Assembly (NCBI GenBank): GCA_041687095.1 | Contig: JAWLCQ010000006.1 | Span: 2,965-66,964, forward strand | Source of the DNA: Phycisphaerae bacterium | GTDB taxonomy: Bacteria; Planctomycetota; Phycisphaerae; SM23-33 | Direction: 5' to 3' | Length of the DNA: 64,000 nucleotides | Notes under the pieces: model-generated | Told to the model about the DNA's origin: nothing | What the model saw: only the letters and a program-made list of their open reading frames with translations | The model's database searches: none | Translations under genes and position numbers: made by a program | Part shown: positions 3-58,737 of the stretch, one piece after another | Layout: every line of letters begins with the position of its first letter | How positions within the stretch are numbered: the stretch's first letter is position 1

Positions 3-647
3 TTGGCGGGGCGCGAGGTCAGCATCGTCAGCGAGGTCGCGGGCACGACGCGGGACTGGGTCCGCGAACTCGCCCTCCTCGACGGATTGCCCGTGTGGCT
101 CACCGACACGGCCGGGATCTGGCGGGAGCGTGGGGGCTCGCCTTTGGAGTGCGGCGGTTCACCGCCGCACTCCAAAGCAGCGCACTCGCAAGACGCGCGA
201 TCCCAAGACGCACACTCGCCGGACGCCCTGTCCCCCGACGCCCTCCGCGCCGAGGTGGACGCCGAGTCCGTCCGCCGCTCCCGCGCCCGCGCCGGCACCG
301 CGGACCTGGTCCTGCTGCTGCAGCCCGGCGGGCCGATCGAGCTTCCCCCCTGGCTGCGGGACGCCCGCGTGCTCCGCGTGTCCACGCAGTGCGACCGTCT
401 CCCCCCCTCGGACGACGCCGACGCGGCCGTCTCGGCCGTCACGGGCGAGGGGCTCGACGAGCTGCGGCGGAGGGTCCGAGAGGCACTGGGCGTGGCGGGG
501 TTCGACGCGTCGCGGGGCGCGGCGTTCACGGAGCGGCAGCGCTCGCTGTTGGAGGCAGCGGCCGATGCGCTGCAGCGCGGGGATGCGGGGAAGGCACAGG
601 CACTGCTCGTGGAGTTGCTGGAAGGCGGCGATACCCTGCGCTCGTGA
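3..647 (+). CDS. mnmE: tRNA-modification GTPase MnmE/TrmE-like, G-domain and C-terminal helical region; 5' partial at window edge and apparently 3'-truncated (no C-terminal CxGK motif)
   Basis: The translation carries the G2 motif 'AGTTRD' and G3 motif 'DTAG', plus 'ADLVLLL' and 'TGEGLDELRRRV'. The tail 'FTERQRSLLEAAADALQRGDAGKAQALLVELL' matches the MnmE C-terminal helix, but the ORF stops about 35 aa before the expected ...CIGK end. A low-complexity insert 'HSKAAHSQDARSQDAHSPDALSPDAL' lies between G3 and G4. Family-A repeat copies follow immediately. Confidence 0.6.
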   Translation: MAGREVSIVSEVAGTTRDWVRELALLDGLPVWLTDTAGIWRERGGSPLECGGSPPHSKAAHSQDARSQDAHSPDALSPDALRAEVDAESVRRSRARAGTADLVLLLQPGGPIELPPWLRDARVLRVSTQCDRLPPSDDADAAVSAVTGEGLDELRRRVREALGVAGFDASRGAAFTERQRSLLEAAADALQRGDAGKAQALLVELLEGGDTLRS

Positions 648-660
648 TCCCCGTGCAGTG

Positions 661-707
661 TCGATTGGACGTGGTTGCTCCGCTGCGCTCCGCAAATCAC
701 GCGGCAC
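661..707 (+). repeat. Partial core of MITE-like repeat family A (core GACGTGGTTGCTCCGCTGCGCTCCGCAAAYCACGGCAC)
   Basis: This stretch is near-identical to cores at 898-948, 4524-4572 (reverse) and 33650-33700. A further degenerate core fragment lies at 763-785. Confidence 0.6.
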
Positions 708-882
708 TCGCGCGTCGGGCTGCGCATCGGCCGCGCCGCGGCGAGCCGCGCCGCTCCGCAGACCACGGCGCCCGCGCTCCATGGACATCTGCCTGCCCAT
801 CCCCATTCCCCTGCATCCCCTGCATCCCTGCCTGCTTCTGAGGAATGCGGACACGGTGCGCAGGGGAGTGCGACCGGAGGTC

Positions 883-987
883 ATACGCATCCCAGGTGAT
901 TCTCGGGCAGCGTCGGTCTGACGTGGTTGCTCCGCTGCGCTCCGCAAACCACGGCACCCGCCCGCGAACCAAGTGGAACGCGTATCA
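883..987 (+). mobile_element. MITE-like element, family A, full-length copy (~105 bp) with imperfect 11-bp terminal inverted repeats (ATACGCATCCC ... GGAACGCGTAT)
   Basis: It is about 90 % identical over ~103 bp to 33631-33733. The imperfect terminal inverted repeat (TIR) is read directly from the sequence. No ORF is present. Its 3' end overlaps the uvrD-family stop codon at 985-987. Confidence 0.5.
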
Positions 988-3246
988 GACCTCTTCGGGG
1001 ATCTCCAGGTGGGTGTAGGCGGCGACGATGGTTTTCTCGCCCAGGTGGGGGAAGAGGATCTTCACCCGCGTGTCGGGCCACGGTTGGGAGATGCTCGTCA
1101 CCTTCCCGATCCCGAACTTCGGATGGCGGACGAGGCACCCGACGCGGAGGTGCTCGTACTCGGGCGGGAAGGACGTGTCGGGCGGGGGCAGGTCGTCGAA
1201 GTCGGGGCGCGGACCGGCGGCGGATTCGATGGCGGAGCGGTCGTCCGCGTCGGCGTAGAAGCCCCCGGCGCGGTGGCGGAGTGCGGAGAAGCCTCGCGCC
1301 CCGCCCGCCCAGCCGCAGTCCTGCTCCTCCACGCCCTCGCCCTCCAGTTCGCTCAGGAAGCGGGACTCGGACTGGGACTCGCTGACCCCCCGCCGCCGCC
1401 GCATGCGGGCGCAGGAGATCGTCAGTTCGTCCATCGCCCGCGTCATGCCCACGAAGGCGAGCCGCCGCTCCTCCTCGATGTGGTCATGGTCGTCCCCGCC
1501 CTCGTCGAACCGCTGCATGGGCAGCAGCCCCTCCTCCCAGCCGATGACGAACACGACGGGGAATTCCAGGCCCTTGGCGGCGTGGAGGGTCATGAGGGTG
1601 ACGGCCCCGGCGGTCCCTTCGAGGTGGTCCACGTCTGAGATCAGCGAGACCTGGTAGAGGTAGTCCGCCAGCGAGGCGCCCGGGGACATCTCGTCGAACT
1701 CGGCCGCCTGGGAGCGGAGTTCCTCGACGTTGGACAGGGGGCGGTCGCCCTCCTTCTCGCGGGCCTGCTCCAGCGCCTGCTGGAGGCCGCTGCGCTCGAT
1801 GACCTGCTGCATGAGTTCGGCCACCCCGACGTGCAGGGACGCGCGGAACGAATCGATCATCTGCGCGAACGCCAGCACCTTGCCCGCGGCCGCGTTGCCC
1901 AGCCCCGTCTCGGGGGCGCGGCGGGCGGCGTCGAGGACAGACACGCCGCGGGTGCGGGCATAGTCGGCGAGGCGGTTCACCGTCGTCGCCCCGATCCCGC
2001 GGGGAGGCGTGTTGATGACCCGCAGGCAGCTCAGGTCGTCGACGGGGTTGACGAGAAGGCGGAGGTAGGCGATGACGTCCTTGATCTCCTTGCGGTTGTA
2101 GAACTCGACACCGCGGGCGATGCGGTACGGGACGCCCGCGCGGATGAGTTCTTCCTCGATGACGCGGGAGAGGGAGTTAATGCGGTAGAAGATGGCGATA
2201 TCGTCATAGTCGCGGCCCTCGTTGCGGGCGGCGGCGATGCGCCGGGAGAGTTCGCGGGCCTCGGCGTGCTCGTCGGCGCAGCGGACAACGTGGACGTTCC
2301 GCCCCCCCTCCCGCCGCGTCCACAGCCGCTTGTCCTTCCGCTGGAGGTTGTGGGCGATGAGGCGGGAGGCGCCTTCCAGGACGGGCCGCGTGGAGCGGTA
2401 GTTCTCCTCGAGGCGGACGACCTTGGCGTGGGGGTAGTCCTGCTCGAACTCGAGGATGTTGCGGATGTCCGCGCCCCGCCAGGCGTAGATGCTCTGGTCC
2501 GGGTCGCCCGTCGCGCAGAGGTTCTCGTGCTCCGACGCCAGCCCATGCGCCAGGATGTACTGCGCGCGGTTGGTGTCCTGGTACTCGTCGATGAGGATGA
2601 ACTGGTAGCGGTTGGAGAGCCCCACGCGGATGTCGGGGCGGGTGCGGAGCAGGAAGCACGTCCGCAGCAGCAGGTCGTCGAAGTCCAGGGCGTTGCGGGT
2701 GCGGAGGAGGCGTTCGTACTGCTCGTAGGCCTTGGCGACCTGGCGGGAGACGAAGTCCTCAGCGTGCTCGGCGAAGGCGGAGGCGGTCTGCAGGTCGTTC
2801 TTGGCGTTGGAGATCACCGAGTGGACGCGGGAGGGAATGAGGGACTGGGGGGGCAGCTCGGCGAGTTCCATGGCCTCCTTGAGGGTGCGGAGTTGGTCGT
2901 CGCGGTCGTAGATGGAAAAGTCGCCCAGGAGCTGGGCCTCGGCGGCGAACTCGCGGAGCAGCCGGGCGCACAGCGAATGGAACGTGCCGACGGTCGATCC
3001 TCGCGGGGCCCCGAGGGCTTCGACGCGGCGGGCCATCTCGCCCGCGGCCTTGTTGGTGAAGGTGATCGCCAGGATGCTCCAGGGCGCCACGCCCTGCTGG
3101 ATGAGGTAGGCGATGCGGCGGGTGATGACGCGGGTCTTGCCGGACCCCGCCCCGGCGAGGACGAGCAGCGGGCCTTCGACGTGCATCACAGCTTCGCGCT
3201 GGGGGTCGTTCAGATCGGCAAAAATATCCAAGCGGGCACACTCCAT
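985..3246 (-). CDS. ATP-dependent DNA helicase, UvrD/PcrA/Rep family
   Basis: It has the Walker A motif 'AGAGSGKTRV' and helicase motifs ('ITFTNKAAGEM', 'ILIDEYQDTN', 'ATGDPDQSIYAWRGA', 'LEENYRS', 'VTLMTLHAAKGLEFP'). The likely start is the ATG at 3246 (MECARLDIFADLNDPQREAV...). The antisense ORF 1831-3528 is spurious. Confidence 0.9.
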   Translation of the reverse strand: MECARLDIFADLNDPQREAVMHVEGPLLVLAGAGSGKTRVITRRIAYLIQQGVAPWSILAITFTNKAAGEMARRVEALGAPRGSTVGTFHSLCARLLREFAAEAQLLGDFSIYDRDDQLRTLKEAMELAELPPQSLIPSRVHSVISNAKNDLQTASAFAEHAEDFVSRQVAKAYEQYERLLRTRNALDFDDLLLRTCFLLRTRPDIRVGLSNRYQFILIDEYQDTNRAQYILAHGLASEHENLCATGDPDQSIYAWRGADIRNILEFEQDYPHAKVVRLEENYRSTRPVLEGASRLIAHNLQRKDKRLWTRREGGRNVHVVRCADEHAEARELSRRIAAARNEGRDYDDIAIFYRINSLSRVIEEELIRAGVPYRIARGVEFYNRKEIKDVIAYLRLLVNPVDDLSCLRVINTPPRGIGATTVNRLADYARTRGVSVLDAARRAPETGLGNAAAGKVLAFAQMIDSFRASLHVGVAELMQQVIERSGLQQALEQAREKEGDRPLSNVEELRSQAAEFDEMSPGASLADYLYQVSLISDVDHLEGTAGAVTLMTLHAAKGLEFPVVFVIGWEEGLLPMQRFDEGGDDHDHIEEERRLAFVGMTRAMDELTISCARMRRRRGVSESQSESRFLSELEGEGVEEQDCGWAGGARGFSALRHRAGGFYADADDRSAIESAAGPRPDFDDLPPPDTSFPPEYEHLRVGCLVRHPKFGIGKVTSISQPWPDTRVKILFPHLGEKTIVAAYTHLEIPEEV

Positions 3247-3321
3247 GCGGTCGGGGAATCCGAGTCCATTCCGCACCGGATGCGGGGCCAACGCCGCCGC
3301 CCGGTGGTCTCCAGCTTCCGT

Positions 3322-3533
3322 AACCGTTCACGCCTATGCACGCGGCGACAGGAGCCTGAAGAAACAGCCGGAGAGAAGGGGATTACACAGATTTCAGGAT
3401 TCCGCAGAAGAGAGAGAAGAGCGATGTTCTCCTTCTCCGTAATCTGCGCAATCTCATCATCTGCGAAATCCCTTTCTTCGGGGCTGTTTCTTCTCTTCAC
3501 GCCTTCGCTGCTGTCTGCGAGGGCGTGAACGGT
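3322..3533. repeat. Inverted-repeat-bounded noncoding element (~210 bp) with nested internal inverted repeats (IRs)
   Basis: The outer IR is GTAACCGTTCACGCC (3322-3336) against GGCGTGAACGGTTAC (3519-3533). An inner IR is GAAGAAACAGCC against GGCTGTTTCTTC. A hairpin CACGCCTTCGC..GCGAGGGCGTG at 3491-3525 also occurs at 50651-50683. A motif GGGATTACACAGATTTCA recurs at 9662-9690 as GGGATCACACAGATCTCA. Confidence 0.5.
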
Positions 3534-3696
3534 TACCAGCCCCCATTATGACGCATCGGGCCGATCGGTTCCATGGGCTCCCTTGCTAAAGCCCCGCCGC
3601 CACGGGCCGATGTAATCACTGTGAGCACAAGGGAGTGCCGCGAGGGCAACGGAGTGGCCCCACCGACGACCGTTGAACCGGGAAACCACAGCATCC

Positions 3697-4275
3697 ATGC
3701 ACACCGCACGCCATAGAGACGTACTGACCACCGGAGAGGTCGCTCAGATCTGCCGCGTCGCCCCGCGCACCGTGAGCAAGTGGTTCGATACGGGCACGCT
3801 CAAGGGTTACCGCATCCCGGGCTCGCGAGACCGGCGGATCCCCCGCGGCGAACTCATCGCCTTCATGCGGGAGCACGGCATGCCCCTGGAGGGGCTGGAC
3901 GGCGGGAGTTGCCGCGTCCTGTTCGTCGGGGACCCGCTGCCCGCGGATCTGCTCGCCGCCGCCGACGCCACCGGCCGCTACGCCGCCCACCGGGCCGGCA
4001 ACGGGTTCGAGGCCGGCGTCCTCGCCGAGCAGATCCACCCCCACGCCGTCGTCCTCCTCCTCGGGCCCGACCCCGACGACGCCCTGGCCCTCTGCCACAA
4101 CGTCAAGTCCAGCGACGCCTTCGCCTCCGCGGGCGTGGTCGCGCTCGTCCCACAGGGGATGGAGATGCGGCCCCAGTGGCGGGCACAGGGAGGCTTCGAC
4201 GCGGTCGTCGCCTGGCCCTGCGAGTTCCGACAGCTCGCGGCGGCCATCGAGAGCGTCACGAATCTGATCGCCTAG
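3697..4275 (+). CDS. DNA-binding protein with an excisionase/MerR-type HTH fused to a degenerate receiver-like (pseudo-REC) domain
   Basis: The N-terminus 'LTTGEVAQICRVAPRTVSKWFDTGTLKGYRIPGSRDRRIPRGELIAFM' matches the excisionase-family HTH pattern. The C-terminal half has a receiver-like alternation ('RVLFVGD', 'VVLLLGPD', 'VVALVP') but lacks the canonical phosphoacceptor context and the conserved Lys. The start is uncertain: ATG at 3697 or TTG at 3673. Confidence 0.6.
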   Translation: MHTARHRDVLTTGEVAQICRVAPRTVSKWFDTGTLKGYRIPGSRDRRIPRGELIAFMREHGMPLEGLDGGSCRVLFVGDPLPADLLAAADATGRYAAHRAGNGFEAGVLAEQIHPHAVVLLLGPDPDDALALCHNVKSSDAFASAGVVALVPQGMEMRPQWRAQGGFDAVVAWPCEFRQLAAAIESVTNLIA

Positions 4276-4488
4276 ATCCGCGGGTCGTTTCGGAGGGAGC
4301 CGGGCCTCCCCCCCGCCTCGCGCGGGGGCCGCCCGGACCGAGCGGCCCGCTGTTTCGGGAGCACCCGCACAATCGGGTGCGTGCAGCGGACACCTGCCAT
4401 GGGCCCGGGGCCGAGGTTGCCCCCCGTCCCGCGGCCACGCAGGAACTACTCGGGCGGCTGCCACGGCGGCCGCCCGCGTTGTTTCCAT

Positions 4489-4623
4489 GCCCCCCTACCG
4501 CTCCACCGAACTCGCCCGTGCGGGTGCCGTGGCTTGCGGAGCGCAGCGGAGCAACCACGTCCAAGCGATACGCCGCCGGAACCGCCCGGCCTCACGCCCC
4601 CCTACCGCTCCACCGAACTCGCC
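4489..4623 (-). mobile_element. MITE-like family A copy in reverse orientation; core 4524-4572 flanked on both sides by a 28-bp direct repeat
   Basis: The reverse complement of 4524-4572 matches the family-A core. A 28-bp sequence GCCCCCCTACCGCTCCACCGAACTCGCC occurs identically at 4489-4516 and 4596-4623. It corresponds to the diverged 3' tail of the element, so it is either a tail duplication or a long TSD-like repeat. Its 3' part overlaps the end of the amidase ORF. Confidence 0.5.
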
Positions 4624-5291
4624 ACCGGGGCCTTCGCCCGCAGCACCCCACGCAGCTTGCCGTGCACGTACGCGTGCAGCGCGTCGCCCGGGCACTCGGT
4701 GCGCGCCCCCGGGGCGTCGCGGTGGCCGATCACCCGCTCCGGGGGGATCCCGTACCGCTCCGCCAGATACCGCACCAGCTTGTGCAGCGAGGCGAGCTGC
4801 TTCTCGCTCGGCAGCCGCCGCCGGAAATCGCCCACCACGCACACGCCGATCCCGTAGTCGTTGTACTCGTTGTCCGGCGTCCCGCCGGTATGCGCCCCCC
4901 ACTTCTGCCCCGCCCACCGCGACCCCACCTGCACGCAGCCATCGGCCGCGTCACAGCCGTTGGGAATCACGAAGTGGTAGCCCAGCTCGTCCCACCCCCG
5001 CCCGCGGTGCATGGCGTCGAAGATCGCCGCGTCGCCGCGCTCCGTCGCGCTGTGATGGACGACGATGAACCGCCACGGCCGCTTGCCCTCGGGGATCCAC
5101 TCGGCGGGCACGTCGGGGCCGGAGGAGACGCGGGGGGCGGGGCGATGCAGGAGCACCTCCACGGGCGGTGCGGGCACGTGGGGCACGGGCAGCTCGTCGA
5201 GCGGATCGAACGGGGGGAGATCCGCGAGGTGGGTCAGGGGTTGCGGCGCGCACGAAACCGCCAGTCCAGCGAACACAGCCAGGCCAAGCAT
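4602..5291 (-). CDS. N-acetylmuramoyl-L-alanine amidase (Amidase_2/PGRP/AmpD-like), probable lipoprotein
   Basis: It has 'FIVVHHSAT...GYHFVI...GAHTGG...NDYGIGVCVVGDF...IGHRD...ECPG', typical of zinc amidase_2. There is an N-terminal signal with a Cys ('MLGLAVFAGLAVSCA'). The start is taken at the ATG at 5291; the ORF extends upstream only as an Arg-rich artefact. Confidence 0.8.
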   Translation of the reverse strand: MLGLAVFAGLAVSCAPQPLTHLADLPPFDPLDELPVPHVPAPPVEVLLHRPAPRVSSGPDVPAEWIPEGKRPWRFIVVHHSATERGDAAIFDAMHRGRGWDELGYHFVIPNGCDAADGCVQVGSRWAGQKWGAHTGGTPDNEYNDYGIGVCVVGDFRRRLPSEKQLASLHKLVRYLAERYGIPPERVIGHRDAPGARTECPGDALHAYVHGKLRGVLRAKAPVASSVER

Positions 5292-6219: not shown

Positions 6220-6338
6220 CCCCCCATCCTGCCGAGTGCGCGGCCCGGGAGCAAGAGGGGCGCAGCCGATTTTCCGTGGGAACCTGGCGAGTCCCCGCAC
6301 CCGCTGGCTGCGCCCCAAATCCGAAATCCCAAACGGGC

Positions 6339-9665: not shown

Positions 9666-9967
9666 GCGCGGACTTGAGATCTGTGTGATCCCTTTCCCGC
9701 TGTGCTGCTTCTTCCCTTTGCGCCTCAGCACCTCTGCGTGAGCCCCGCCCCCGGCGCAAAGCGAAACCGGTGCGGACGTTTCCATCCGCACCGGCCCTGC
9801 TCCTCGGTTCGATCCATGGCAAAGGGGCAATGCGTACACGTTCTTTATCGGCGGAATGCTCGCGCGCCTTTGCGTAGCGGCGGAGGAAATCTACTCCGTT
9901 CGCGGCGGACTTCGACAGGCTCAGGACCAGCCCTTCGACAAGCTCAGGACCAGGCCGCCGCCGCGAA

Positions 9968-10288
9968 GGGGGCGCTCCAACGACGCTGCCGCGGAGGCCC
10001 CCCTCGCCCCTCCGGGACGCCGGGGGTCAGGAGACCCCCGGCGCAGGAGGTGGTGCGCGTGCGACGCCTCAAGCGCGTGCCGCCGCAAGCGCGTGCCGCC
10101 TCCAGCGCGTGCGTTGGGGGTCTCCTGACCCCCAACGTCCTGGAAGGACTACGAGCGCTTCCGCGATAGCGTTATGGCGGCGCTTCGATCGCGGCGATCC
10201 CCGCCGCGATGGGGGCGCTCCAACGACGCTGCCGCGGAGGCCCCCCTCGCCCCTCCAGGACGCCGGGGGTCAGGAGGCCCCCGGCGCA
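9968..10288. repeat. Two copies of a 79-bp direct repeat (9968-10046 and 10210-10288) within a hairpin-rich noncoding region spanning 9766-10440
   Basis: The copies differ at 2 positions. The associated tracts AGCGCGTGCCGCC x3 (10067-10112) and their reverse complement (10366-10425) sit in inverted orientation. Hairpins lie at 9766-9792 (10-bp stem), 10030-10047 and 10120-10145. A GCTCAGGACCAG tandem lies at 9917-9960. ORFs here are artefacts. Confidence 0.6.
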
Positions 10289-10471
10289 GACGCGCGGGAC
10301 GGGCCAGAGGACCCGCGACGCAGGCGCGTGCGAGATGTGCAGAATAATGAGGCCAGGAGACTCCCAACGCACGCGCTGGAGGCGGCACGCGCTTGGGGCG
10401 GTATGCGTTTGGGGCGGCACGCGCGCGTGAGGCGGCGAGGGTCGGCGGCGGGGACGTTGCGCTGGACGCCC

Positions 10472-13539: not shown

Positions 13540-13641
13540 GCGCCCCGCGCCGCAGGCGCAACGCGCCCGGGGACCACTGTAGCGATTCGAGCCCGCCAAG
13601 TCCACGCTGTCGGAGAACTCCGCAGCGCCATCCCGAAGTCG

Positions 13642-13729
13642 CAGTCGCGGGTGCCACGGCTGCGCCGTTCACAGCCGTGCTCGTACGAGCGTGGGACGGA
13701 GCACCGGTTCTGCCAGCCTGTGGCACCCG
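13642..13729. repeat. MITE-like repeat family B (~80 bp) with a 10-bp TIR CGGGTGCCAC / GTGGCACCCG; second copy at 58738-58795
   Basis: 50 of 52 bp are identical to 58738-58790 (AGTCGCGGGTGCCACGGCTGCGCYGTTCACAGCCGTGCTCGYACGAGCG), with extended similarity after that. The TIR is present in this copy only. Confidence 0.5.
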
Positions 13730-17885: not shown

Positions 17886-17944
17886 TGCCCGGGCGTGGCC
17901 GGATCGTCGCGGGTCCCCGGCGAGTCCTCGCACCCGCTGGAGGC

Positions 17945-18137
17945 GGTCGAAATCCGAAACCCGCAATCCCAAACTCGAAACAAGCCCGAAGCACGAAACT
18001 CGAAATCCCAAACAGCCCCCCGTTGTGCAGGGCTCCCCGGCACTCCGAGGCACGCACGGTGCGCAGCCCTTTGGGATTTCGTATCTTCGGTTTTGAATTT
18101 GTTTCGGATTTCGGGCTTCGCATTTCGGATTTCAAGA
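17945..18137. repeat. Lower-GC imperfect palindrome (~190 bp) built from GAAATCCGAAA / CGAAATCCCAAA motif copies in both orientations
   Basis: The left arm is 17945-18013 and the right arm 18069-18137; the ends match as reverse complements (gaaatccgaaa...cgaaatcccaaa). It lies ~370 bp upstream of pilB-1. A related motif occurs at ~6300. Confidence 0.5.
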
Positions 18138-18500: not shown

Positions 18501-20219
18501 ATGGCACAAAAGATTCGAAAACGACTGGGTGAGATCCTGGTGGAGTGGGGCGTCGTGTCCCCGGGCGCGGTGGAGGAGGCCCTGGCGCACGCCCAGGCCG
18601 AGCGGCTGCGGATCGGGGAGGCCCTCATCGCCCTCGAACTCGCGGACGAAGAGGACGTCACGAAGGCCCTGGCGAGCCAGTTCAACATGGAGTACATCGA
18701 CCTCGACCGCAACGTGGTCATCGCCCAGGAGTCGGAGCAGATCCCCATGGATCTGATCCGCCGGCACCTGGTCGTCCCCATGGGGCGGGAGGACGGCAAG
18801 CTCAAGGTGATCATCACCGACCCGCTGGACCTGGAAACCCTGGACATGCTGCGGTTCCGCCTGAACTGCGACCTGGCCCCGGTGCTGGCGTCGCGGACGA
18901 AGCTGCGGAACTACGTCGAGCAGTTCGCCCGCAGCGACGTCAGCATCGACCAGGCGGTCCGGGACGTGTCGACCGACGTCAGCATCGACACGGTCGGGGA
19001 CGAGGACGGCGGGCCGGAGGAAAAGCTCGATGAAAATGCCGCCCCGATTGTCCGTCTGGTTAACATGATCATCACCGAGGCGGTGAACATGCGGGCGTCG
19101 GACATCCACATCGAGCCCATGGCCAACCGCGTCCGCGTCCGCTACCGCGTGGACGGGGTCTGCATGGAGCGCGACAACATCCGCAAGCGCATGCAGGGCC
19201 CGGTCCTCAACCGCTTCAAGATCCTTTCGGGCATGGACCTGGCGGAAAAGCGGATGCCCCTCGACGGCCGCATCAAGATGCGCATCGGCAATGGCGACGT
19301 CGACTTCCGCGTCTCGTCGATCCCCGCCTACCACGGGGAGAGCATCGTCCTGCGTATTCTGCGTCCCGAGAGCGCCAAGCTCGGCGTTCGGGCGCTGGGG
19401 CTGGAGCAGGAAGACTACGACGCCTTCCAGCAGATGATCAAGCGGCCCAACGGCGTGTTCCTGGTTACCGGTCCCACGGGGTCGGGCAAGACGACCACGC
19501 TGTACGCGGCCATCAACGAACTCAACCGGCCCGACCGCAAGATCATCACCGCGGAGGACCCGGTGGAGTACAACTTCACCGGCGTGAACCAGGTTCAGGT
19601 GAACGAGACCATCGAACTCTCCTTCGCCAGGATACTTCGAGCCATGTTGCGCCAGGCGCCTAACGTGATCCTGGTGGGCGAGATTCGCGACAAAGAGGTG
19701 GCTGAAGTGGCCATCCAGGCCGCTCTGACTGGACACTTGGTTTTCAGTACACTCCACACGAACGATGCCCCCTCCGCAATCACCCGTCTGGTCGACATGG
19801 GCGTCAAGCCCTTCCTCGTCGCCAGCAGTATCCAGGCGGTCCTGGCCCAGCGGCTCATCCGCGTAATCTGCAAGGAGTGTCGCCAGGAGGATCCGAACGT
19901 CGATCCGCGCGTCCTGCGGGCCCTGGGGTTCACCGAGGCGGACATCAAGGCCTCAACCTTTTATCGTGGCGCGGGTTGCAGCACGTGCGGCGGGTCGGGA
20001 TACCGTGGGCGGCAGGGCATTTTCGAGATGATGGAGATGGACTCCACCCTCCGCGAGCTGGCCTTCAACCACGCGCCGCTGACGGAGATCCGCAAGGCGG
20101 CCCGGGCCGGGGGCATGCGAAGCCTCCTGGAGGACGGCCGGGCGAAGATCCGCAACGGCGTCACCACGCCGGAAGAGCTGATCCGCGTGACGCAGACCTC
20201 GGACCTGACGGCGGAATAA
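18501..20219 (+). CDS. pilB: Type IV pilus assembly / T2SS ATPase PilB/GspE family (copy 1) with N-terminal MshEN-type domain
   Basis: It has Walker A 'GPTGSGKTT', Asp/His boxes and a tetra-Cys motif (CKEC...CSTCGGSG). The N-terminus has tandem 'RLGEILVEWGVVSPGAVEEAL..Q' and 'RIGEALIALELADEEDVTKALASQ' MshEN-like motifs. Confidence 0.9.
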   Translation: MAQKIRKRLGEILVEWGVVSPGAVEEALAHAQAERLRIGEALIALELADEEDVTKALASQFNMEYIDLDRNVVIAQESEQIPMDLIRRHLVVPMGREDGKLKVIITDPLDLETLDMLRFRLNCDLAPVLASRTKLRNYVEQFARSDVSIDQAVRDVSTDVSIDTVGDEDGGPEEKLDENAAPIVRLVNMIITEAVNMRASDIHIEPMANRVRVRYRVDGVCMERDNIRKRMQGPVLNRFKILSGMDLAEKRMPLDGRIKMRIGNGDVDFRVSSIPAYHGESIVLRILRPESAKLGVRALGLEQEDYDAFQQMIKRPNGVFLVTGPTGSGKTTTLYAAINELNRPDRKIITAEDPVEYNFTGVNQVQVNETIELSFARILRAMLRQAPNVILVGEIRDKEVAEVAIQAALTGHLVFSTLHTNDAPSAITRLVDMGVKPFLVASSIQAVLAQRLIRVICKECRQEDPNVDPRVLRALGFTEADIKASTFYRGAGCSTCGGSGYRGRQGIFEMMEMDSTLRELAFNHAPLTEIRKAARAGGMRSLLEDGRAKIRNGVTTPEELIRVTQTSDLTAE

Positions 20220-20321
20220 CCCCAGAGCCCTTAACAGTCCCAACCGTTTGAAAACAAAATAGTTGTGTGCCTGCCGGACCCCGGGAGCCCTCGCTTTCGG
20301 TGGCCGGGCAGGAGGATCCGG

Positions 20322-20330
20322 TGTGATAAT
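20322..20330 (+). promoter_or_regulatory. Candidate extended -10 element (TGTGATAAT) upstream of pilT in the AT-richer pilB-pilT gap
   Basis: TGnGATAAT lies ~23 bp upstream of the ATG at 20353, and GGGAGAGG is a ribosome-binding site (RBS). No clear -35 is seen. It is speculative in a non-model phylum. Confidence 0.2.
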
Positions 20331-20352
20331 GCACCTGGGAGAGGAAAACTAG

Positions 20353-21483
20353 ATGGCTGCGATTCACATTGACAGATTGCTTGAGACGTGCATCAAGCGG
20401 GGTGCCAGCGACCTGCACCTCCACGTGGGCCGGCGGCCCACGTTGCGGTTGCACGGGCGGCTGCGGCCGTTGGAGACCAAGGTCCTGGAGCCGGAAGACA
20501 CTCTCGCCCTGATGAAGGCCATCACTCCCGAGCGAGCCCAACAGGAAATCCAGGAGCAGGGCGGTACGGATTTTGGGTTCGAGTTCGGCAAGGCCGGCCG
20601 CTTCCGTACCTCCGTGTACAACCAGCGGGGCAACATCTCGCTGGTGATGCGTCTGATCCCCTCCCGCCTCCTGTCCTTCGATGAGATCGGCCTGCCGGAA
20701 ATCGCGCGGGTCGTCTGCCGCCGCCCCCGCGGCATGTTCCTCGTGACGGGCCCGACGGGCTCGGGCAAGACGACGACGCTGGCGACGATGATCGACTACG
20801 TCAACACGGAGTTCGACCGCCACATCATCACCGTCGAAGACCCGATCGAGTACTACCACGATCACAAGAAGTCGATCGTCTCGCAGCGCGAGGTCGGGGT
20901 CGACATCCCCAGCTTCGCCGAGGCCCTCCGCCGCTCGCTCCGTATGGACCCCGACGTGATCCTCGTCGGGGAGCTTCGCGACCTGGAGACGATTGAATCC
21001 GCCCTTCGCGCCGCGGAGACCGGCCACCTGGTGTTCGGGACGCTGCACACCACCAGCGCCCAGGGCACCGTCACGCGTATCGTGGACCAGTTCCCGGTCG
21101 ATCAGCAGGAGCAGATCCGCGTGCAGCTCGCCTCCTCCCTGATCGCCGTGCTCTCCCAGACCCTTCTGCCGCGCGTGGACATCCGAGGCATGACCGCGGC
21201 CTTCGAGTTCCTGTACGTCACCCCTGCCGTCGCGAACCTCGTCCGCGAGAACAAGGTCTTCCGCATCCCGTCGGCCATCCAGACGGGGCGGAAGTTCGGC
21301 ATGCAGTTGCTGGACGAGCACCTGTTCCGCCTGTTCGCCGAGGGCAAGATCTCCGAGGAGGATGCCATCGACCGCAGCCAGCAAGCCGGGGAAATGCAGG
21401 AGAAGATCGAGGCGTTCCGGGCCGGGAAGTACGTTCCCCCCACGGAGCAGGATCAGGGTTCCGACGACCAGGCGGCAGGCTGA
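20353..21483 (+). CDS. pilT: Twitching-motility retraction ATPase PilT/PilU family
   Basis: The N-terminus 'RGASDLHLHVGRRPTLRLHGRL' is PilT-like. It has Walker A 'GPTGSGKTT' and 'ILVGELRD'. RBS GGGAGAGG. Confidence 0.9.
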   Translation: MAAIHIDRLLETCIKRGASDLHLHVGRRPTLRLHGRLRPLETKVLEPEDTLALMKAITPERAQQEIQEQGGTDFGFEFGKAGRFRTSVYNQRGNISLVMRLIPSRLLSFDEIGLPEIARVVCRRPRGMFLVTGPTGSGKTTTLATMIDYVNTEFDRHIITVEDPIEYYHDHKKSIVSQREVGVDIPSFAEALRRSLRMDPDVILVGELRDLETIESALRAAETGHLVFGTLHTTSAQGTVTRIVDQFPVDQQEQIRVQLASSLIAVLSQTLLPRVDIRGMTAAFEFLYVTPAVANLVRENKVFRIPSAIQTGRKFGMQLLDEHLFRLFAEGKISEEDAIDRSQQAGEMQEKIEAFRAGKYVPPTEQDQGSDDQAAG

Positions 21484-21497
21484 GGAGGTAGCGACCC

Positions 21498-23270
21498 ATG
21501 GGAATGACACCGGATATCGCGGAATTCAAAAAGCGGGTGACGATCGACGAACTCCGCGGGCGGCCGCTGGGGCGCGTGCTGCTCAAGCTCGGGTGCGTGA
21601 CGCGGGAGCAGGTCAACGAGGCCCTGGAGATCAAGAAGGACAAGGGCGGCACGATCGGGCAGATCATGGTGGACCTCGGGCACATCTCGGACAAGACCCG
21701 CGCGTTGGCGATGGGATTCCAGTCCGGGATGGAGTACGTGGACCTGAGTTCCATCGACGTGCCCCCCGAGGTCGTGCACCAGATCCCCGCCCAGATGGCC
21801 ACGACGTACCGCATCATCCCGCTGGACTTCGATCAGGAGACCAAGCGGCTGACGGTGGCGTTGGACTCGGCGGAGAACTTCCAGGCGACGGACGACCTGC
21901 AGACGCTGATGGGCTTCCGCGTCACGGCGAAGATCTGCGAGCCCGAGCAGCTCGACTCGGCCGTCCAGAAGTACTACGGGACGGGCGACGAGAAGCTCAG
22001 CGACCTGTTCAACGAGATCGCCGGGGACGATGACTTCGATGCCCTGGAGAACCGCGGGGAGAGCATCGACCTGGACACCATCAAGGAGATGGCGGACTCC
22101 AACCCCGTCCGCCGCCTGGTGAACATGGTGCTCTGGGAGGCCATCCGCAACCGCTCGTCCGACATCCACTTCGAGCCCTTCGAAGACGAGTTCAAGATGC
22201 GCTACCGCATCGACGGGGTGCTGTACGAGATGCTCCCGCCCCCCAAGTCGATCGCCGTCGCCATCGCCTCCCGCATCAAGGTCATGGCCAACCTCGACAT
22301 CGCCGAGCGCCGCCTGCCCCAGGACGGCCGCATCGAGCTGGTCGTCCGCGGGGCCCCGGTGGACCTCCGCGTCTCGGTGCTCCCGACCATGTTCGGGGAG
22401 AGCGTGGTCATGCGTGTGCTCGACCGGTCGAACGTCTCGCTGGACCTCGACCGCATCGGGTTGCGCGAGGACGACCAGCGGATCTTCCGGCAGTTGATCA
22501 AGCGGCCCAACGGGATCGTCATCGTGACGGGCCCGACGGGTTCGGGCAAGACGACGACGCTGTACTCCGCCCTCAACGACCTCAACGACGTCGAGGTGAA
22601 GATCCTCACCAGCGAGGACCCCGTCGAGTACGACATCGACGGGCTCGTCCAGGTGCAGATCAACGACGAAATCGGCCTGACGTTCGCGCGGTGCCTGCGG
22701 CACTTCCTGCGGCAGGACCCGGACGTCATCCTCATCGGGGAGATCCGCGACCTCACGACGGCCGAGATCGCCGTCCAGTCCTCGCTGACGGGCCACCTGG
22801 TGTTCTCCACCCTGCACACCAACGACGCCCCCTCCTCCATCGCGCGTCTGCTGGATCTCGGCCTCGAGCCGTACCTCGTGACGGCGACGCTGGAGGGGAT
22901 CGTCGCCCAGCGCCTGGTGCGAACCATCTGCAGCCGCTGCAAGGAGGAGTTCACGCCCACCGAGGAGATGCTGTACGAACTGGGCCTCACGCCCGACCAG
23001 ATCTCCGGGCGGACCTTCTTCCGCGGGGCCGGGTGCGAGTACTGCCGCAACACGGGCTACAGCGGCCGAATGGCCATCTTCGAGATCATGGTGATCGACG
23101 ACGAGCTGCGAGAGTTGATCATGAAGCGGAGCAGCACGAACCTGCTGCGGCAGGCGGCGAGGAAGCGCGGCATGCGAACGCTGCGAGAGAGCGGGTTGAT
23201 GGCGATCTACGACGGGCAGACCACGATCGAAGAGGTCGTGGGGCAGACCATCGAAGAAGAGATGGAATAA
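21498..23270 (+). CDS. PilB/GspE-family assembly ATPase (copy 2) with N-terminal GSPII/MshEN-like domain
   Basis: It has Walker A 'GPTGSGKTT' and a tetra-Cys motif (CSRC...CEYCRNTG). The N-terminus has 'RPLGRVLLKLGCVTREQVNEALE'. It lies 14 bp after pilT. Confidence 0.9.
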   Translation: MGMTPDIAEFKKRVTIDELRGRPLGRVLLKLGCVTREQVNEALEIKKDKGGTIGQIMVDLGHISDKTRALAMGFQSGMEYVDLSSIDVPPEVVHQIPAQMATTYRIIPLDFDQETKRLTVALDSAENFQATDDLQTLMGFRVTAKICEPEQLDSAVQKYYGTGDEKLSDLFNEIAGDDDFDALENRGESIDLDTIKEMADSNPVRRLVNMVLWEAIRNRSSDIHFEPFEDEFKMRYRIDGVLYEMLPPPKSIAVAIASRIKVMANLDIAERRLPQDGRIELVVRGAPVDLRVSVLPTMFGESVVMRVLDRSNVSLDLDRIGLREDDQRIFRQLIKRPNGIVIVTGPTGSGKTTTLYSALNDLNDVEVKILTSEDPVEYDIDGLVQVQINDEIGLTFARCLRHFLRQDPDVILIGEIRDLTTAEIAVQSSLTGHLVFSTLHTNDAPSSIARLLDLGLEPYLVTATLEGIVAQRLVRTICSRCKEEFTPTEEMLYELGLTPDQISGRTFFRGAGCEYCRNTGYSGRMAIFEIMVIDDELRELIMKRSSTNLLRQAARKRGMRTLRESGLMAIYDGQTTIEEVVGQTIEEEME

Positions 23271-24737: not shown

Positions 24738-25460
24738 ATGAGGCACGGGAACCGAGGGATACGCGGCGGCGGCCGCGGGTTCACGCTTGTCGAGCTGATG
24801 GTGGTCATCACGATCATCGGGCTGCTGGTGGGGTTGATGGCGCCGGCGATGACGGCGATCCGCCGCGCGGCGATGGAGGCGCGGTGCAAGGCCCGCATCG
24901 GCGAGCTGAGCAACGGGTGCCTGCAGTTCTGGGAAGACAACAAGCTCTACCCCGCGCAGGACTACACGTCCAAGCTGGGAAAGACAGGCCAGGGCGTCGT
25001 CAGCGGGGCGTCGGCGATGAGCGCGGCCCTGTTCGGGTACGACTATCCCATGGGCCGCCATGGCAATCTTGATAACGTGATGGCACCGTATGCCGTCACC
25101 ATCCGCCAGGTCGCCATCAGCAAGTACGCCCAGTTGGACTCCGCGCAAGACTTCTGCGCCAGGGACAACATGGCCACGATGAGCGATCGGTGGAGCGGCC
25201 AGCCGATGCCGATCCTGTACTACCCCTCGCGGCCCGGCGTGAAGGGGCTGGAGCAGTACGTGGAGAATGACAACATCGCGCACACGGAGGGGGTCACGTG
25301 GAAGCGAGGCACGAGCACCAAGTTCCATGACTACATCGCCAACAAGGTCCTCGGCGGCGGCGTGCCGTACAACGACCAGAAGTTCCTGATCATCGCCGCC
25401 GGATCGGACCGCAAATACGGGACCTCCGACGACATCACCAACTGGACCCGGGAGGAGTAG
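24738..25460 (+). CDS. Pseudopilin/pilin with prepilin-type N-terminal cleavage/methylation domain (class III signal G|FTLVE)
   Basis: 'RGFTLVELMVVITIIGLLVGL' has F at +1 and E at +5 after the cleavage Gly. Confidence 0.85.
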   Translation: MRHGNRGIRGGGRGFTLVELMVVITIIGLLVGLMAPAMTAIRRAAMEARCKARIGELSNGCLQFWEDNKLYPAQDYTSKLGKTGQGVVSGASAMSAALFGYDYPMGRHGNLDNVMAPYAVTIRQVAISKYAQLDSAQDFCARDNMATMSDRWSGQPMPILYYPSRPGVKGLEQYVENDNIAHTEGVTWKRGTSTKFHDYIANKVLGGGVPYNDQKFLIIAAGSDRKYGTSDDITNWTREE

Positions 25461-25464
25461 CGCC

Positions 25465-26232
25465 ATGCACGCCACCACCCCACGTTCCTCCTCCCGCCCC
25501 CGCGGGGGGTTCACCATCGTCGAGCTGACGCTCACCGTCGCCATCATGACGCTGATCTCCACGGCGATGCTGATCTCCTACTCGCGCTACGTGAACCTCG
25601 CGCGGAAGTCGGCGACCCGGGCCACCTTCCAGCAGATCGACTCGGCGGTGTACCTGTACGCCTCCGACAACGACAACCAGTTCCCGCCCAGCCAACTCAA
25701 CGGCGTGGCCGGTGCGCAGTGCCTGCCGATCTTCATCGCCGGATGCGTGGGCGATGAGGGCGGCGACAACACGCCCTCCGAAAAGTGGCGGAACAGCAAG
25801 GGCGTCGTCGCCGACGACGGCAAGGAGGGGTTCGGGTACCGCAAGGTCGCCCGCGGGCGCGTCTACGGGCCGTACAACGGCGTGGAGCAGATCCCGCTGA
25901 AGAAGCCCGACGGGGTGGATACGGCCTACCCGGTGTTCTACGACTCCTTCGGGGGGATCATCTTCTACTACCGCTGCGATCGCTCCGTGCTCCAGTCGAA
26001 CTACAACCAGGCCTACCAGATCAGCGACCACGACTCCAGCAAATGGGCAGGGAACAAGGGCCCGATCACGCCGGGCAACGCCTACTTCAAGAACATCTCC
26101 ATCGACGAGGGCGAACCCCGCTACTTCCGCACCGACTTCACCCTCTGCTCCTGGGGGCCCAACGAGCGGTGGCAGAACCCCACGAACCCGGCCAGCGACG
26201 ACAACACCAACTTCGATTTCGCCAGAAAGTAG
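25465..26232 (+). CDS. Pseudopilin with prepilin-type signal (G|FTIVE)
   Basis: 'RGGFTIVELTLTVAIMTLIS' carries the prepilin-type signal. It lies 4 bp after the previous gene. Confidence 0.8.
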   Translation: MHATTPRSSSRPRGGFTIVELTLTVAIMTLISTAMLISYSRYVNLARKSATRATFQQIDSAVYLYASDNDNQFPPSQLNGVAGAQCLPIFIAGCVGDEGGDNTPSEKWRNSKGVVADDGKEGFGYRKVARGRVYGPYNGVEQIPLKKPDGVDTAYPVFYDSFGGIIFYYRCDRSVLQSNYNQAYQISDHDSSKWAGNKGPITPGNAYFKNISIDEGEPRYFRTDFTLCSWGPNERWQNPTNPASDDNTNFDFARK

Positions 26233-26242
26233 AGAGCCAGCC

Positions 26243-26962
26243 ATGCGGTATCGACAGCACTATCACGACCGAGCGGCGGAACGGGGCCGGGGGGAGCGCG
26301 GCGGCATGACGCTCGTCGAGCTGCTGGTGGTCCTTTTCGTGATCGCCATCCTCGTCTCCCTGGTGGTGGGCGTCTCGTCGTACATCACCACCCGCGTCTC
26401 CATCTCCCAGACCCAGGCGACCCAGACCGTGGTCAACGGGGCCATCCAGGCCTACGTGAAAGCGCAGGACGCCCCCCCCGCCCATCCGACCAGCGCACTC
26501 TACGACGTCATCCTGCAGGGCGACTCGGAGATGATCTGGAAGACCGAGCTGCAGTGGGAAGAGCAGGATGTCCGCGCCTACGTCCGCAGCCTCTGCCTGT
26601 TCCACCAGCTCGTCCACGTGCCCGAGTCGGCGCGGGAGCTGCAGCACCTGGGCGTGGGGGAGGCCCTCGAACAGGTCAGCCTGGTGAGCGGCAACCCGGC
26701 ATCCAACTACACCGGGCTGGTCTACACCACCTGGTTCAAGGAGTGGGAGTCGGACTGGGGCCGGGACGCCAACGCCCCGCCCCGCGCGTTCATGGACGGG
26801 TTCGGCAAGCACATGGACTACAAGAGGAACGAGGGGCTCGGCGGCAACCCCGTCCTCATCTCCGCCGGAGAGGACGGGCGGTTCGGGGACCGCGGCAGCG
26901 ACAGCCCGATCCTCCGAAACGCCGTCGCCGACAACGTACGCTCCGACAACCGCAACCAGTAG
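26243..26962 (+). CDS. Pseudopilin with prepilin-type signal (G|MTLVE)
   Basis: 'GGMTLVELLVVLFVIAILVSL' carries the prepilin-type signal. Confidence 0.8.
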   Translation: MRYRQHYHDRAAERGRGERGGMTLVELLVVLFVIAILVSLVVGVSSYITTRVSISQTQATQTVVNGAIQAYVKAQDAPPAHPTSALYDVILQGDSEMIWKTELQWEEQDVRAYVRSLCLFHQLVHVPESARELQHLGVGEALEQVSLVSGNPASNYTGLVYTTWFKEWESDWGRDANAPPRAFMDGFGKHMDYKRNEGLGGNPVLISAGEDGRFGDRGSDSPILRNAVADNVRSDNRNQ

Positions 26963-26982
26963 CCCCTCGGGGAGAGCAGAAC

Positions 26983-27921
26983 GTGAATACCTATACGACA
27001 CTCCGATCCCGGCCGGGCTTCACGCTGATGGAACTCATGATCACGCTGATGCTCATCGCCCTGCTGGCGGCGTTGGCGCTGCCGACGGTGATGACCCTCT
27101 TCAACTCCGGGGCCGAGGAGCAGGCCGTCAACATCCTCACCGCCCAGATCAACGCCGCCCGCTCCCTCGCCATCCGCAAGAACACCTACGCCGGCGTCCA
27201 CGTCCAACTCGCCGACAAGGCCCTCGACATCCCCTTCGACACCAACGACCCGCGCGAGCGGAAGTACGTGTGCTACTCGGCCGTCGTCTGGGCCGATCCG
27301 TCCGCCGCCTCCCAGGCCGCCGGGGATCAGATCAAGTTCCGCATCGCCCCCAACTACCAGCCCATCCGCATGCCCCGCACCATCGCCTTCGGGGTGGTGG
27401 CGGCCCCGTTCGTCAACCCGGACGAGGAAAAGGAGCCGTACACCACCGCTCTGCTGACCCATCGGTTCGACGCGTCGGACATGTCGGGGCCTGACTACAT
27501 CCGCGAGTTCACCACCTTCACCATCGTCTTCAGCCCCTCCGGGCAGATCCTCAACCGGCTGCCCACCGGCGATCTGGAGTTCGCGGAGATCAAGCCGGAG
27601 GAGTCCGGCGGGCCCGAAGTGGACCCGTTCATCGACGACGACGACCCCAAGACCGAGGCCAGCCTCTGGAACCGCGACTGGGCGGAGCAGTACCAGACCG
27701 ACTACAACACCGGGGACGATGACACCAAGCTGGCGCAGAACAGGTCCCGCCGCCTCGCCCGGACGGTCGTCGTGTTCGACGTCGTCTACCTCATGCAGAT
27801 GCCCCGATCGTACCTGACCGCCGACAGCAAGACCGTCTACCCGCGTGCGGACCACATGAACGCCACGGGCGGCTACCTCGCCATCAACCCTCATACCGGG
27901 CAGTTGCTGCCCAGGGAGTAA
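26983..27921 (+). CDS. Pseudopilin with prepilin-type signal (G|FTLME); GTG start
   Basis: 'RPGFTLMELMITLMLIALLAAL' carries the prepilin-type signal. The start is the GTG at 26983, preceded by GGGGAGAG. It shares a frame with the artefactual long ORF 26554-27921. Confidence 0.75.
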   Translation: MNTYTTLRSRPGFTLMELMITLMLIALLAALALPTVMTLFNSGAEEQAVNILTAQINAARSLAIRKNTYAGVHVQLADKALDIPFDTNDPRERKYVCYSAVVWADPSAASQAAGDQIKFRIAPNYQPIRMPRTIAFGVVAAPFVNPDEEKEPYTTALLTHRFDASDMSGPDYIREFTTFTIVFSPSGQILNRLPTGDLEFAEIKPEESGGPEVDPFIDDDDPKTEASLWNRDWAEQYQTDYNTGDDDTKLAQNRSRRLARTVVVFDVVYLMQMPRSYLTADSKTVYPRADHMNATGGYLAINPHTGQLLPRE

Positions 27922-27926
27922 CGGCC

Positions 27927-28745
27927 ATGAGAACCAATCCTCGAACGACGCGTGCGCCGCGATACGGCTTCTCGCTCGCCGAGATGGTCATCGCCCTGGC
28001 CATTCTCGGGGTGGGCCTGAGCATGCTGCTCTCCCTCTTCCCCGCCGCCATCGTCGAGACCGCCTCGTCCACCAACCAGACCATGGGCTCGCTGATCTGC
28101 CAGAACGGGCTCACCATGGCCAAGAGCGCCCTGACCTCCGACCTGCTGCTGTCGCGAAAGCCCAGTACGGACGAGCAGCCCCACAACGGGTGGATGCGGG
28201 TGCAGGAGGTCCGCGAAGCGTGGACCAACCTGGTGAACCTGGGGGACCGGCGGTATCCCGTGCAGGCGATCGCCAAGACGACCACGCGCGGCGTGGTGAT
28301 CCTGGCGCGCAAGGTCAACGCGGACGTGAACGACCACCGGTGGCAGCTCATCGCCGTCTCCTATGCGAAGAAGAACGCCACCGGGACGACGGTGCGCGGC
28401 CTGTACCCCACGGATACCCCCGAAGCCCATCCGAAATCCTACATCACCCAGGACATCGATCGGAATGAGAAGCGGTTCACCGTGACGGGCAACCGGCGGC
28501 TCTTCTTCAAGAAGGGCGGCGTGGTGATTGACTGCAGCCAGGGCAGTTCCGGGGAGTTCGCACGCATCGCCGAAATCGAGCGTCTAAGCGAGAGCGAAAA
28601 CCGCGTGACCCTGGACCGGGCCTTCAGCCGCGACGTCAGCCGGGTGATCGTGATCGAGGAGTACAAGGGCGCCGCCCTGGTCACCGACGGCGATAGCGCG
28701 GTGATGAACGTGATGAGTATCGAAACGATTCTCCCGAAGAACTGA
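27927..28745 (+). CDS. Pseudopilin with prepilin-type signal (G|FSLAE)
   Basis: 'RYGFSLAEMVIALAILGVGLSML' carries the prepilin-type signal. Confidence 0.8.
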   Translation: MRTNPRTTRAPRYGFSLAEMVIALAILGVGLSMLLSLFPAAIVETASSTNQTMGSLICQNGLTMAKSALTSDLLLSRKPSTDEQPHNGWMRVQEVREAWTNLVNLGDRRYPVQAIAKTTTRGVVILARKVNADVNDHRWQLIAVSYAKKNATGTTVRGLYPTDTPEAHPKSYITQDIDRNEKRFTVTGNRRLFFKKGGVVIDCSQGSSGEFARIAEIERLSESENRVTLDRAFSRDVSRVIVIEEYKGAALVTDGDSAVMNVMSIETILPKN

Positions 28746-28756
28746 CCGCCAGCCTC

Positions 28757-33630: not shown

Positions 33631-33733
33631 ATACGCATCCCAGGTGATTCTCGGGCAGCGTCGATTGGACGTGGTTGCTCCGCTGCGCTCCGCAAACCAC
33701 GGCACCCACCCGAGAATTGAGTGGAACGCGTAT
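33631..33733 (+). mobile_element. MITE-like family A full-length copy (TIR ATACGCATCC ... GGAACGCGTAT), flanked by TA dinucleotides
   Basis: It is about 90 % identical to 883-987. The flank reads TA|TACGC...GCGTA|TA, suggestive of a Tc1/IS630-type TA duplication. The other full copy does not show this. Confidence 0.5.
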
Positions 33734-33783
33734 AAGTGGAACCCGTCTTACCGAGCCGGAGCCTTGGGCTTGGGCAAGATGCG

Positions 33784-50650: not shown

Positions 50651-50885
50651 CAAACAGCGGCGAAGGCGTGAAGAGTGAGACTGCGTCGCAAGTGCTGTGG
50701 AGTGCGGTGCTTCAGCACCGCTTTGCACCCACGCGCATGTGTCCTGTGGAAGATTCCTCCGCACACCGAGCTTTGAAAACCTGTCAACGGCAGAGCCCCT
50801 GTCCATGAGACCGTTCAGCAGAGTCGGGCGTTCGCACTTGATCGACGTCCAGCGGAAAGCGGTGCTGAAGCACCGCACTCCATAG
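50651..50885. repeat. Structured noncoding element: hairpin CACGCCTTCGC..GCGAAGGCGTG (50651-50683) plus a 23-bp IR pair GGAGTGCGGTGCTTCAGCACCGC (50700-50722) / GCGGTGCTGAAGCACCGCACTCC (50860-50882)
   Basis: It is read directly from the sequence. Each IR arm is itself palindromic. The first hairpin is a near-copy of 3491-3525. Confidence 0.5.
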
Positions 50886-50992
50886 GGATTGCCTCCAAGT
50901 CCCGCGCACGCGCACGCAAAGCACGGTATACTGCTCTCCCCCTCCGGCGGCGATGTCCCCCCGCCCGAGGGGCAATCGATAAGGAGACGCAC

Positions 50993-58667: not shown

Positions 58668-58737
58668 CCCCAGAGCCTACCCATCCCCCCCCGCCGATGC
58701 AACCGCCCCGCCCGCGACAGCGCCATCGCAACCCCTC

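Follow-up and report, generated by a model that had tools for sequence, protein, structure and literature searches.

The stretch of DNA analyzed here, 64,000 nucleotides (nt) of a Phycisphaerae genome (contig JAWLCQ010000006.1) and hereafter called the window, begins inside a GTPase gene that resembles mnmE. The visible 3′ part of this gene, assigned by NCBIfam and Pfam profiles and by its homologues, occupies positions 3–647 of the forward strand and comprises 214 codons and a stop; its open reading frame (ORF), frame 3, is already open at the window's left edge and closes with a TGA at 645–647. The TrmE_N domain, the first half of the helical domain and the G1 motif belong to the 5′ part of the gene, which lies off the window. 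A spacer rich in short repeats follows and leads to the stop codon of a convergent UvrD/PcrA-family helicase gene and, further on, to a gene for an HTH_17 protein. A first-pass annotation, prepared from the letters of the sequence, had described the GTPase gene as an mnmE cut short exactly where repeats resembling miniature inverted-repeat transposable elements (MITEs) begin, and had offered two explanations, a pseudogene created by repeat insertion or a lineage-specific short MnmE.

The likeness to MnmE is borne out by profile comparison. Among the NCBIfam profiles the window fragment matches the MnmE equivalog NF003661 best (E 8.6e-22; 78 bits, cut-off 380); it also gives a weak match to Pfam MnmE_helical (PF12631; 21.6 against 40.1 bits) and one to MMR_HSR1 that falls just under its cut-off (21.1 against 21.9 bits). 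The fragment carries switch I (AGTTRDWV), G3 (DTAG), the sequence VDAES, G4 (TQCD) and G5 (VSAV); switch I/G2 and G3, which span positions 42–119, are both conserved in the family alignment (invariant columns G14, T15, T16, R17, D18, V20, D35, T36 and G38), and every family-invariant residue is retained in the window protein. Two C-terminal helices (FTERQRSLLEAAADAL and AGKAQALLVELLEG, positions 531–626) correspond to helices 177–191 and 195–207 predicted by AlphaFold2 (AF2) and end at the motif LLxG, and the protein terminates with ...VELLEGGDTLRS. In E. coli MnmE the last helix, residues 436–454, is termed the swivel helix and ends in a conserved FC(V/I/L)GK motif (PMC12397908). That the window gene stops early and without a C(I/L)GK motif was a correct observation: its family ends at about residue 421 of E. 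coli MnmE, and some 33 residues including FCIGK are absent. The window DNA has a GC content of 68%, and three other frames across the GTPase region have open stretches of some 250 codons; the three overlapping ORFs that cover the DNA of the gene at 95–947 (248–263 amino acids (aa), in other frames or on the other strand) are high-GC artefacts.

We compared the end of the gene with those of its relatives. A protein search that covered 5.8 billion proteins returned 115 matches, and a scan of GTDB with one genome per species found at least 218 loci encoding relatives, 80 of which were fetched. The 73 best of the 115 protein matches (E 8e-43 to 6e-19) are all at most 375 aa long and stem from Planctomycetota/Phycisphaerae assemblies, and the complete-looking homologues measure 364–375 aa and contain TrmE_N and MMR_HSR1 domains. 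All aligned homologues stop at ...LLxG, the column of VELLEG in the window protein, and so do 77 of the 77 fetched GTDB loci with a complete 3′ end, where LLxG is followed by a tail of 0–19 residues; the window protein has a tail of 6 aa, within this range. No family member, among the aligned proteins and the 77 complete loci alike, contains C[ILVM]GK. The motif FCxGK occurs only in nine weak protein matches (E ≥ 3e-12), which are ordinary MnmEs; the one closest to the window protein (P0081) is proteobacterial, and a search through its relatives for a canonical MnmE of the same lineage led to Proteobacteria. C-terminal extensions in two loci (L009 and L025) were rejected as read-through artefacts across stop codons. 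Since residues 162–366 of the 369-aa homologue P0001 align with residues 200–418 of the 454-aa E. coli MnmE (9hip_A), the end of the family is placed near E. coli residue 421. A segment lost from the window gene might also have survived intact downstream in another frame; a tblastn search of nt 1–1100 for the final 50 residues of three canonical MnmEs returned noise only.

The gene neighbourhood was likewise compared. Three homologues on long contigs show the order rpmA-obg-coaX-GTPase followed by a convergent uvrD and an HTH_17 gene, and the window holds the matching order of GTPase, convergent uvrD and HTH_17. Among the fetched loci coaX lies upstream of the GTPase gene at 56 of 63 and obg at 50 of 63, and a convergent uvrD is present at 22 of 66. 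The window gene is the positional orthologue of the short family members. Because the spacer between the GTPase gene and uvrD measures 0, 9 and 165 nt in the three homologues, against 337 nt in the window, there is no room in them for a lost C-terminal segment. A MITE insertion that truncated a canonical mnmE would have removed the last 35 or so codons, CxGK included, and left a pseudogene. Such an event could account for a stop codon that sits inside the left arm of a repeat copy, for a protein that lacks FCxGK and for repeats that occupy the next 340 bp, but every orthologue has the same end with no repeat nearby, uvrD follows within 0–9 nt in two of them, the 6-aa tail is ordinary for the family and the region downstream holds no C-terminal remnant. 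We therefore regard truncation as scarcely credible. With orthologues that share the short C-terminus without CxGK and the same neighbourhood, the pseudogene explanation of the first-pass annotation is refuted, while its alternative, a lineage-specific short form, is supported. The gene of this lineage never had the swivel helix (436–454) with its FC(V/I/L)GK motif. ORF 3–647 is very likely intact and represents the 3′ part of an MnmE-like GTPase that is naturally short and lineage-specific; its family, of about 370 aa, occurs in Phycisphaerae and other Planctomycetota.

To describe the whole protein we turned to the homologue P0001, for which an AF2 model was built from 54 aligned members (mean predicted local distance difference test score, pLDDT, 91.5). 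The top Foldseek matches of this model in the PDB are MnmE structures and extend over all three domains (9hip_A, E 8e-22), its N domain superimposes on 1xzq_B with a Foldseek root-mean-square deviation of 1.4 Å, and the sequence passes the PF10396 (TrmE_N) cut-off with 48.7 against 29.8 bits. Short helices at 120–132 and 136–147 of the model lie close to where the E. coli hinge helix has its two halves, 123–135 and 138–149 (PMC12397908). The architecture of the short family is thus that of MnmE, with a TrmE_N domain and a G domain inserted within the helical domain. Sequence and fold alike match MnmE/TrmE most closely (9HIP/9HIQ; T. maritima 1XZP/1XZQ), and AGTTRD and DTAG are held in common. 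An acidic residue in the family motif [IV]D/E, moreover, aligns at E. coli E282 in the P0001 alignment. E282 of MnmE has a catalytic role. The differences from MnmE/TrmE are equally clear: the short proteins are about 85 aa smaller, the first half of their helical domain is predicted to span about 60 aa instead of about 95 and to be completed by two helices after the G domain, they end at about E. coli residue 421 without the swivel helix or FC(V/I/L)GK, their G4 mostly reads [STAG][KQ]xD, their genes lie beside obg and coaX and not mnmG, and their profile scores stay far under the equivalog cut-offs. Der/EngA, Era and HflX share the MMR_HSR1-type G domain and gave weaker matches than MnmE; they lack both the TrmE_N domain and the insertion topology of the helical domain. 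The short family is MnmE-like, while its identity as MnmE is not demonstrated.

The repeats in the spacer belong mostly to a family that we call family A. Its 29-nt core, GACGTGGTTGCTCCGCTGCGCTCCGCAAA, is present at 668, 920, 4533 (minus strand) and 33668, that is four times in 64 kb where none is expected. The first copy was annotated earlier as a partial core at 661–707; alignment of the copies confirmed a real repeat and moved its start to nt 631, giving a partial forward-strand element at 631–714 that consists of a left arm and the core, with an unrelated right side. The left arm from nt 631 agrees with the full copy in 27 of 37 nt, a score reached by only 7 of 200,000 random 37-mers of the window (~3.5e-5), and the element overlaps the (D)TLRS codons as well as the TGA at 645–647. 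A degenerate forward-strand core fragment does exist as proposed and is better placed at 746–775 (87% identical to 932–961) than at 763–785. The tandem of the 9-nt unit TCCCCTGCA was recovered at 807–828 with 2.4 copies by Tandem Repeats Finder (TRF), and the full MITE-like element was recovered on the forward strand at 883–988, bounded by terminal inverted repeats (ATACGC.../...GCGTAT) and 92% identical to a second full copy at 33631–33736. Full family-A elements measure about 100–106 nt and fold back end to end, with folding z-scores of −2.4 to −3.4 (−3.4 for 883–988 on the minus strand). The stop codon of the convergent uvrD (985–987) sits in the last bases of the element at 883–988, an overlap that had been pointed out before, and the copy at 33631–33736 likewise lies between convergent genes, about 50 nt beyond the point where a minus-strand gene stops. 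In both full copies TA stands directly inside the ATA...TAT ends; this may be either a TA duplication or the repeat's own sequence. Rfam at its gathering thresholds gave no match, with only chance hairpin matches in 100–1100, and a scan for consensus terminators and promoters found none in the spacer.

The repeats removed nothing from the GTPase gene. Small MITE-like elements have instead colonized the convergent spacer, which has grown from the 0–165 nt seen in homologues to 337 nt. In the course of this the partial copy at 631 would have replaced the native stop codon, and it probably supplies the final four to five codons of the gene together with the TGA. Because family tails range from 0 to 19 residues, this terminal change is cosmetic. 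Family A resembles MITEs and repetitive extragenic palindromes (REPs) or their doublets (REPINs) in its length of about 100 bp, its lack of coding capacity, its multiple copies, its terminal inverted repeats, its fold-back over the whole length and its location at convergent gene ends. It differs from them in that no transposase or REP-associated tyrosine transposase (RAYT) has been identified with it, no search aimed at transposases having been made, and in an ambiguous target-site duplication; only a core of about 41 nt is common to another organism. This core, at 5220–5269 of locus L083, is 92–98% identical, is flanked by other arms and lies on an unrelated metagenome contig of 62% GC. The core forms a hairpin (CGTGGTTGC / GCAAACCACG), and the three substitutions among its copies all retain pairing as G-U on the strand shown, an outcome expected by luck in about one case in eight. 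At 4486–4640 the reverse core (4533–4561) stands between the two copies of a 31–38 nt direct repeat (CCCCCCTACCGCTCCACCGAACTCGCC, at 4486 and 4593), an arm structure unlike that of the full family-A copies.

An odd insert between G3 and G4 had also been remarked upon, and it is present: the switch II loop from DTAGIW to VDAES (positions 123–254, forward strand) measures 44 aa and contains a 39-aa in-frame insertion. The corresponding loop between DTAG[IL]W and [IV]D/E has 5 aa in 151 of 193 sequences, and the insert of the window protein is the largest of the 193. The site of insertion is nevertheless a family trait and not a sign of decay. Four other members (P0033, L038, L062 and P0044) carry 14–30 extra residues at the same loop, which is an insertion hot spot of the family. 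The inserted DNA includes a perfect REP-like 16-bp palindrome around a TTCA loop (CTTTGGAGTGCGGCGG TTCA CCGCCGCACTCCAAAG, 142–177; folding z-score −4.15) and, on the forward strand, 15-nt tandem repeats of five codons each, which encode AHSQD/ARSQD/AHSPD/ALSPD and span 180–245 (TRF called 180–219 with a period of 15 and 2.7 copies, and the extension to about 245 was made by eye). The translated insert contains ...SPLECGGSPPHSKAAHSQDARSQDAHSPDALSPDAL..., and its ends (GCGTGGGGGC / GCCCTCCGCGC) are roughly inverted repeats. Related hairpins are found in intergenic DNA at 50695–50722 and 50857–50885 and in locus L031, and the palindrome has the motif GGAGTGCGG-YGN-TTCA-NCR-CCGC in common with the 50.7-kb hairpins and the L031 hairpin. 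In the former region (50679–50901) two GGAGTGCGGTGCTTCAGCACCGC hairpins stand in inverted orientation about 130 bp apart, as a REPIN-like doublet, and their stems show compensatory changes with respect to the in-gene copy. In L031, from another metagenome-assembled genome (MAG) of the Planctomycetota, CTTTGGAGTGCGGCGGCGCAGACGCCGCTTTGG is located at 4826–4870, some 100 nt past the end of the orthologous GTPase gene, and the hairpin motif therefore extends beyond the source genome.

We suggest that a REP-like palindrome landed in-frame in an insertion-tolerant loop and that slippage of 15-nt repeats then lengthened it. Rickettsia palindromic elements (RPEs) are inserted in-frame in protein genes. 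The window insert is like them in being a palindromic, repeat-like sequence in-frame within a tolerant loop of a conserved gene; it is unlike them in being a single in-gene copy whose related hairpins have just a short motif in common, in belonging to a different phylum and in additionally holding a tandem repeat. The insert also raises the question of whether the gene, although its C-terminus is normal for the family, is a young pseudogene that was recently inactivated by the 39-aa insertion and whose frame is still open. That the insert is unmatched in length among the 193 sequences and separates G3 from the catalytic acidic residue would fit such an event, open frames come cheaply in 68% GC DNA, and one insertion in three keeps the frame by luck. 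Opposed to this are the extra residues of the four other members at the same loop, the retention of all invariant residues and the AF2 prediction, in which the insert is extruded as a low-confidence coil (pLDDT ~50) from an otherwise intact G domain (85–97). We consider recent inactivation improbable.

A degenerate G4, TQCD in place of NKxD, had been named as a further irregularity of the gene. The sequence at 384–395 of the forward strand does read TQCD, and its Asp is invariant in the family alignment. The family G4 is [STAGN][KQ]xD, with SKCD in 19, TKCD in 17, AKCD in 15, GKCD in 13 and TQCD in 8 sequences, and NKxD in about 36; TQCD is one variant of the family and not the product of decay.

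The reading of the ORF as part of an intact, naturally short MnmE-like GTPase has to be set against several points that weigh on the other side. The N-terminal two fifths of the gene lie off the window, and its integrity is visible for the 3′ part only. Its nearest relatives, the homologues of 364–375 aa, are only 48–58% identical to it, and the GTDB scan gave no match with more than 50% identity. P0001 falls below the MnmE equivalog cut-offs, with 146 against 380 bits for NF003661 and 84 against 252.6 bits for TIGR00450, and at 24.2 bits stays below the PF12631 gathering score of 40.1. Activation of the GTPase could suffer from a 39-aa insert in switch II, and the open frame through this insert is weak functional evidence because long chance frames arise in 68% GC DNA. 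Furthermore, tblastn with an E. coli MnmG query detected no mnmG either in the window or within the 800 kb of flanking DNA.

For the function of the short protein, the mechanism proposed for E. coli MnmE is the obvious reference. There the swivel helix resides in the folate pocket and moves to the FAD pocket of MnmG, and together with FCIGK it is proposed to act as a methylene relay from MnmE to MnmG (PMC12397908, a cryo-electron microscopy study of 2025). In the same work MnmE C451 was crucial for modification, and deletion of 436–454 lowered the affinity for MnmG about ten-fold (PMC12397908). MnmG is listed in six of the six Planctomycetes of the COG set (PMC5954106); on MnmE in Planctomycetes or Phycisphaerae we found nothing specific in the literature. 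With switch I, DTAG and the acidic residue at the E282 position kept, the short protein would be a dimerization-activated GTPase of the MnmE type. It may be the MnmE-equivalent partner in wobble-uridine modification that hands over to MnmG without the C-terminal Lys/Cys relay, a tentative proposal to which we give slightly less than an even chance.

The main alternative is that the protein is a paralogue turned to another use, such as a GTPase that is associated with ribosomes or translation and is co-transcribed with obg and coaX, and that a canonical MnmE/MnmG pair is encoded elsewhere in the genome. Its place in an obg-coaX and not a yidC-jag-mnmG context, the absence of a motif held crucial for modification (PMC12397908), the missed equivalog cut-offs and the reduced helical domain would all be in keeping with a GTPase linked to the obg-coaX operon. 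The family nonetheless keeps the TrmE_N domain and the layout of the hinge helix, and tblastn with canonical MnmEs disclosed no second mnmE-like gene in the window, nor was one present in any fetched flank. Two MAGs, D1M07_5 (L046/L063) and binchicken_co8_191 (L015/L075), do hold two copies each of the short GTPase gene with about 48% identity; every copy lies behind coaX, and obg was additionally seen for L046/L063. The same synteny at both copies suggests mixed bins, and we rejected true paralogy in these MAGs. Repurposing is a serious possibility that we would still rather doubt than assert. We hold with yet more reserve that the short protein is the sole MnmE homologue beside an MnmG and that xm5 modification proceeds without a swivel helix and FCxGK or, failing this, that there is no such modification and the protein plays a new role independent of MnmG.

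A sole MnmE homologue of this kind beside MnmG would speak, as a natural counter-example, against the methylene relay proposed for the C-terminus. A widespread family with N-terminal and G domains and without the swivel helix is, in any event, a ready-made test case for the relay: either these bacteria manage without the relay or with a substitute for it, or they have turned the MnmE scaffold to another task. For annotation, labels such as pseudogene or truncated mnmE should be avoided for the gene and its relatives, and the label MnmE equivalog should await evidence. With its in-frame REP-like insertion, the switch II loop of the window gene offers a modest yet clear case of a repeat tolerated within a conserved GTPase.

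The convergent neighbour, a UvrD/PcrA-family helicase gene recognized by Pfam, occupies 985–3291 on the minus strand. Its UvrD tudor domain extends to the end of the protein, and its C-terminus fits those of the orthologues in L081 and L082 within one to two residues; uvrD is thus intact. The HTH_17 protein gene (Pfam) follows at 3673–4275 on the forward strand and has a counterpart in L081 and L082. In L081, dnaA (2262–3683) precedes the rpmA-obg-coaX-GTPase cluster by about 4 kb, and the cluster therefore lies near the likely replication origin there.

Further repeats are scattered over the window. The intergenic region 9958–10430 is dense in them, with a direct repeat of 89 nt (97% identity) and several inverted repeats of 76–101 nt. 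Two dispersed families have members of 96 nt with 80% identity (13623–13718 and 58718–58813) and of 72 nt with 75% identity (6258–6329 and 17891–17962). Heptamer-type tandems (GAGAGGT/TAGAGGT) at 57914–58048 and 58884–59193 face an inverted copy, and nested inverted repeats of 43–46 nt lie nearby. Among the other genes, three paralogues at 19424–22783 and 24775–28856 encode a GPTGSGKTTT Walker A motif, and several ORF starts carry FTLVELLVV-type motifs; by eye, this region looks like a gene cluster for secretion ATPases and pilin-like proteins.

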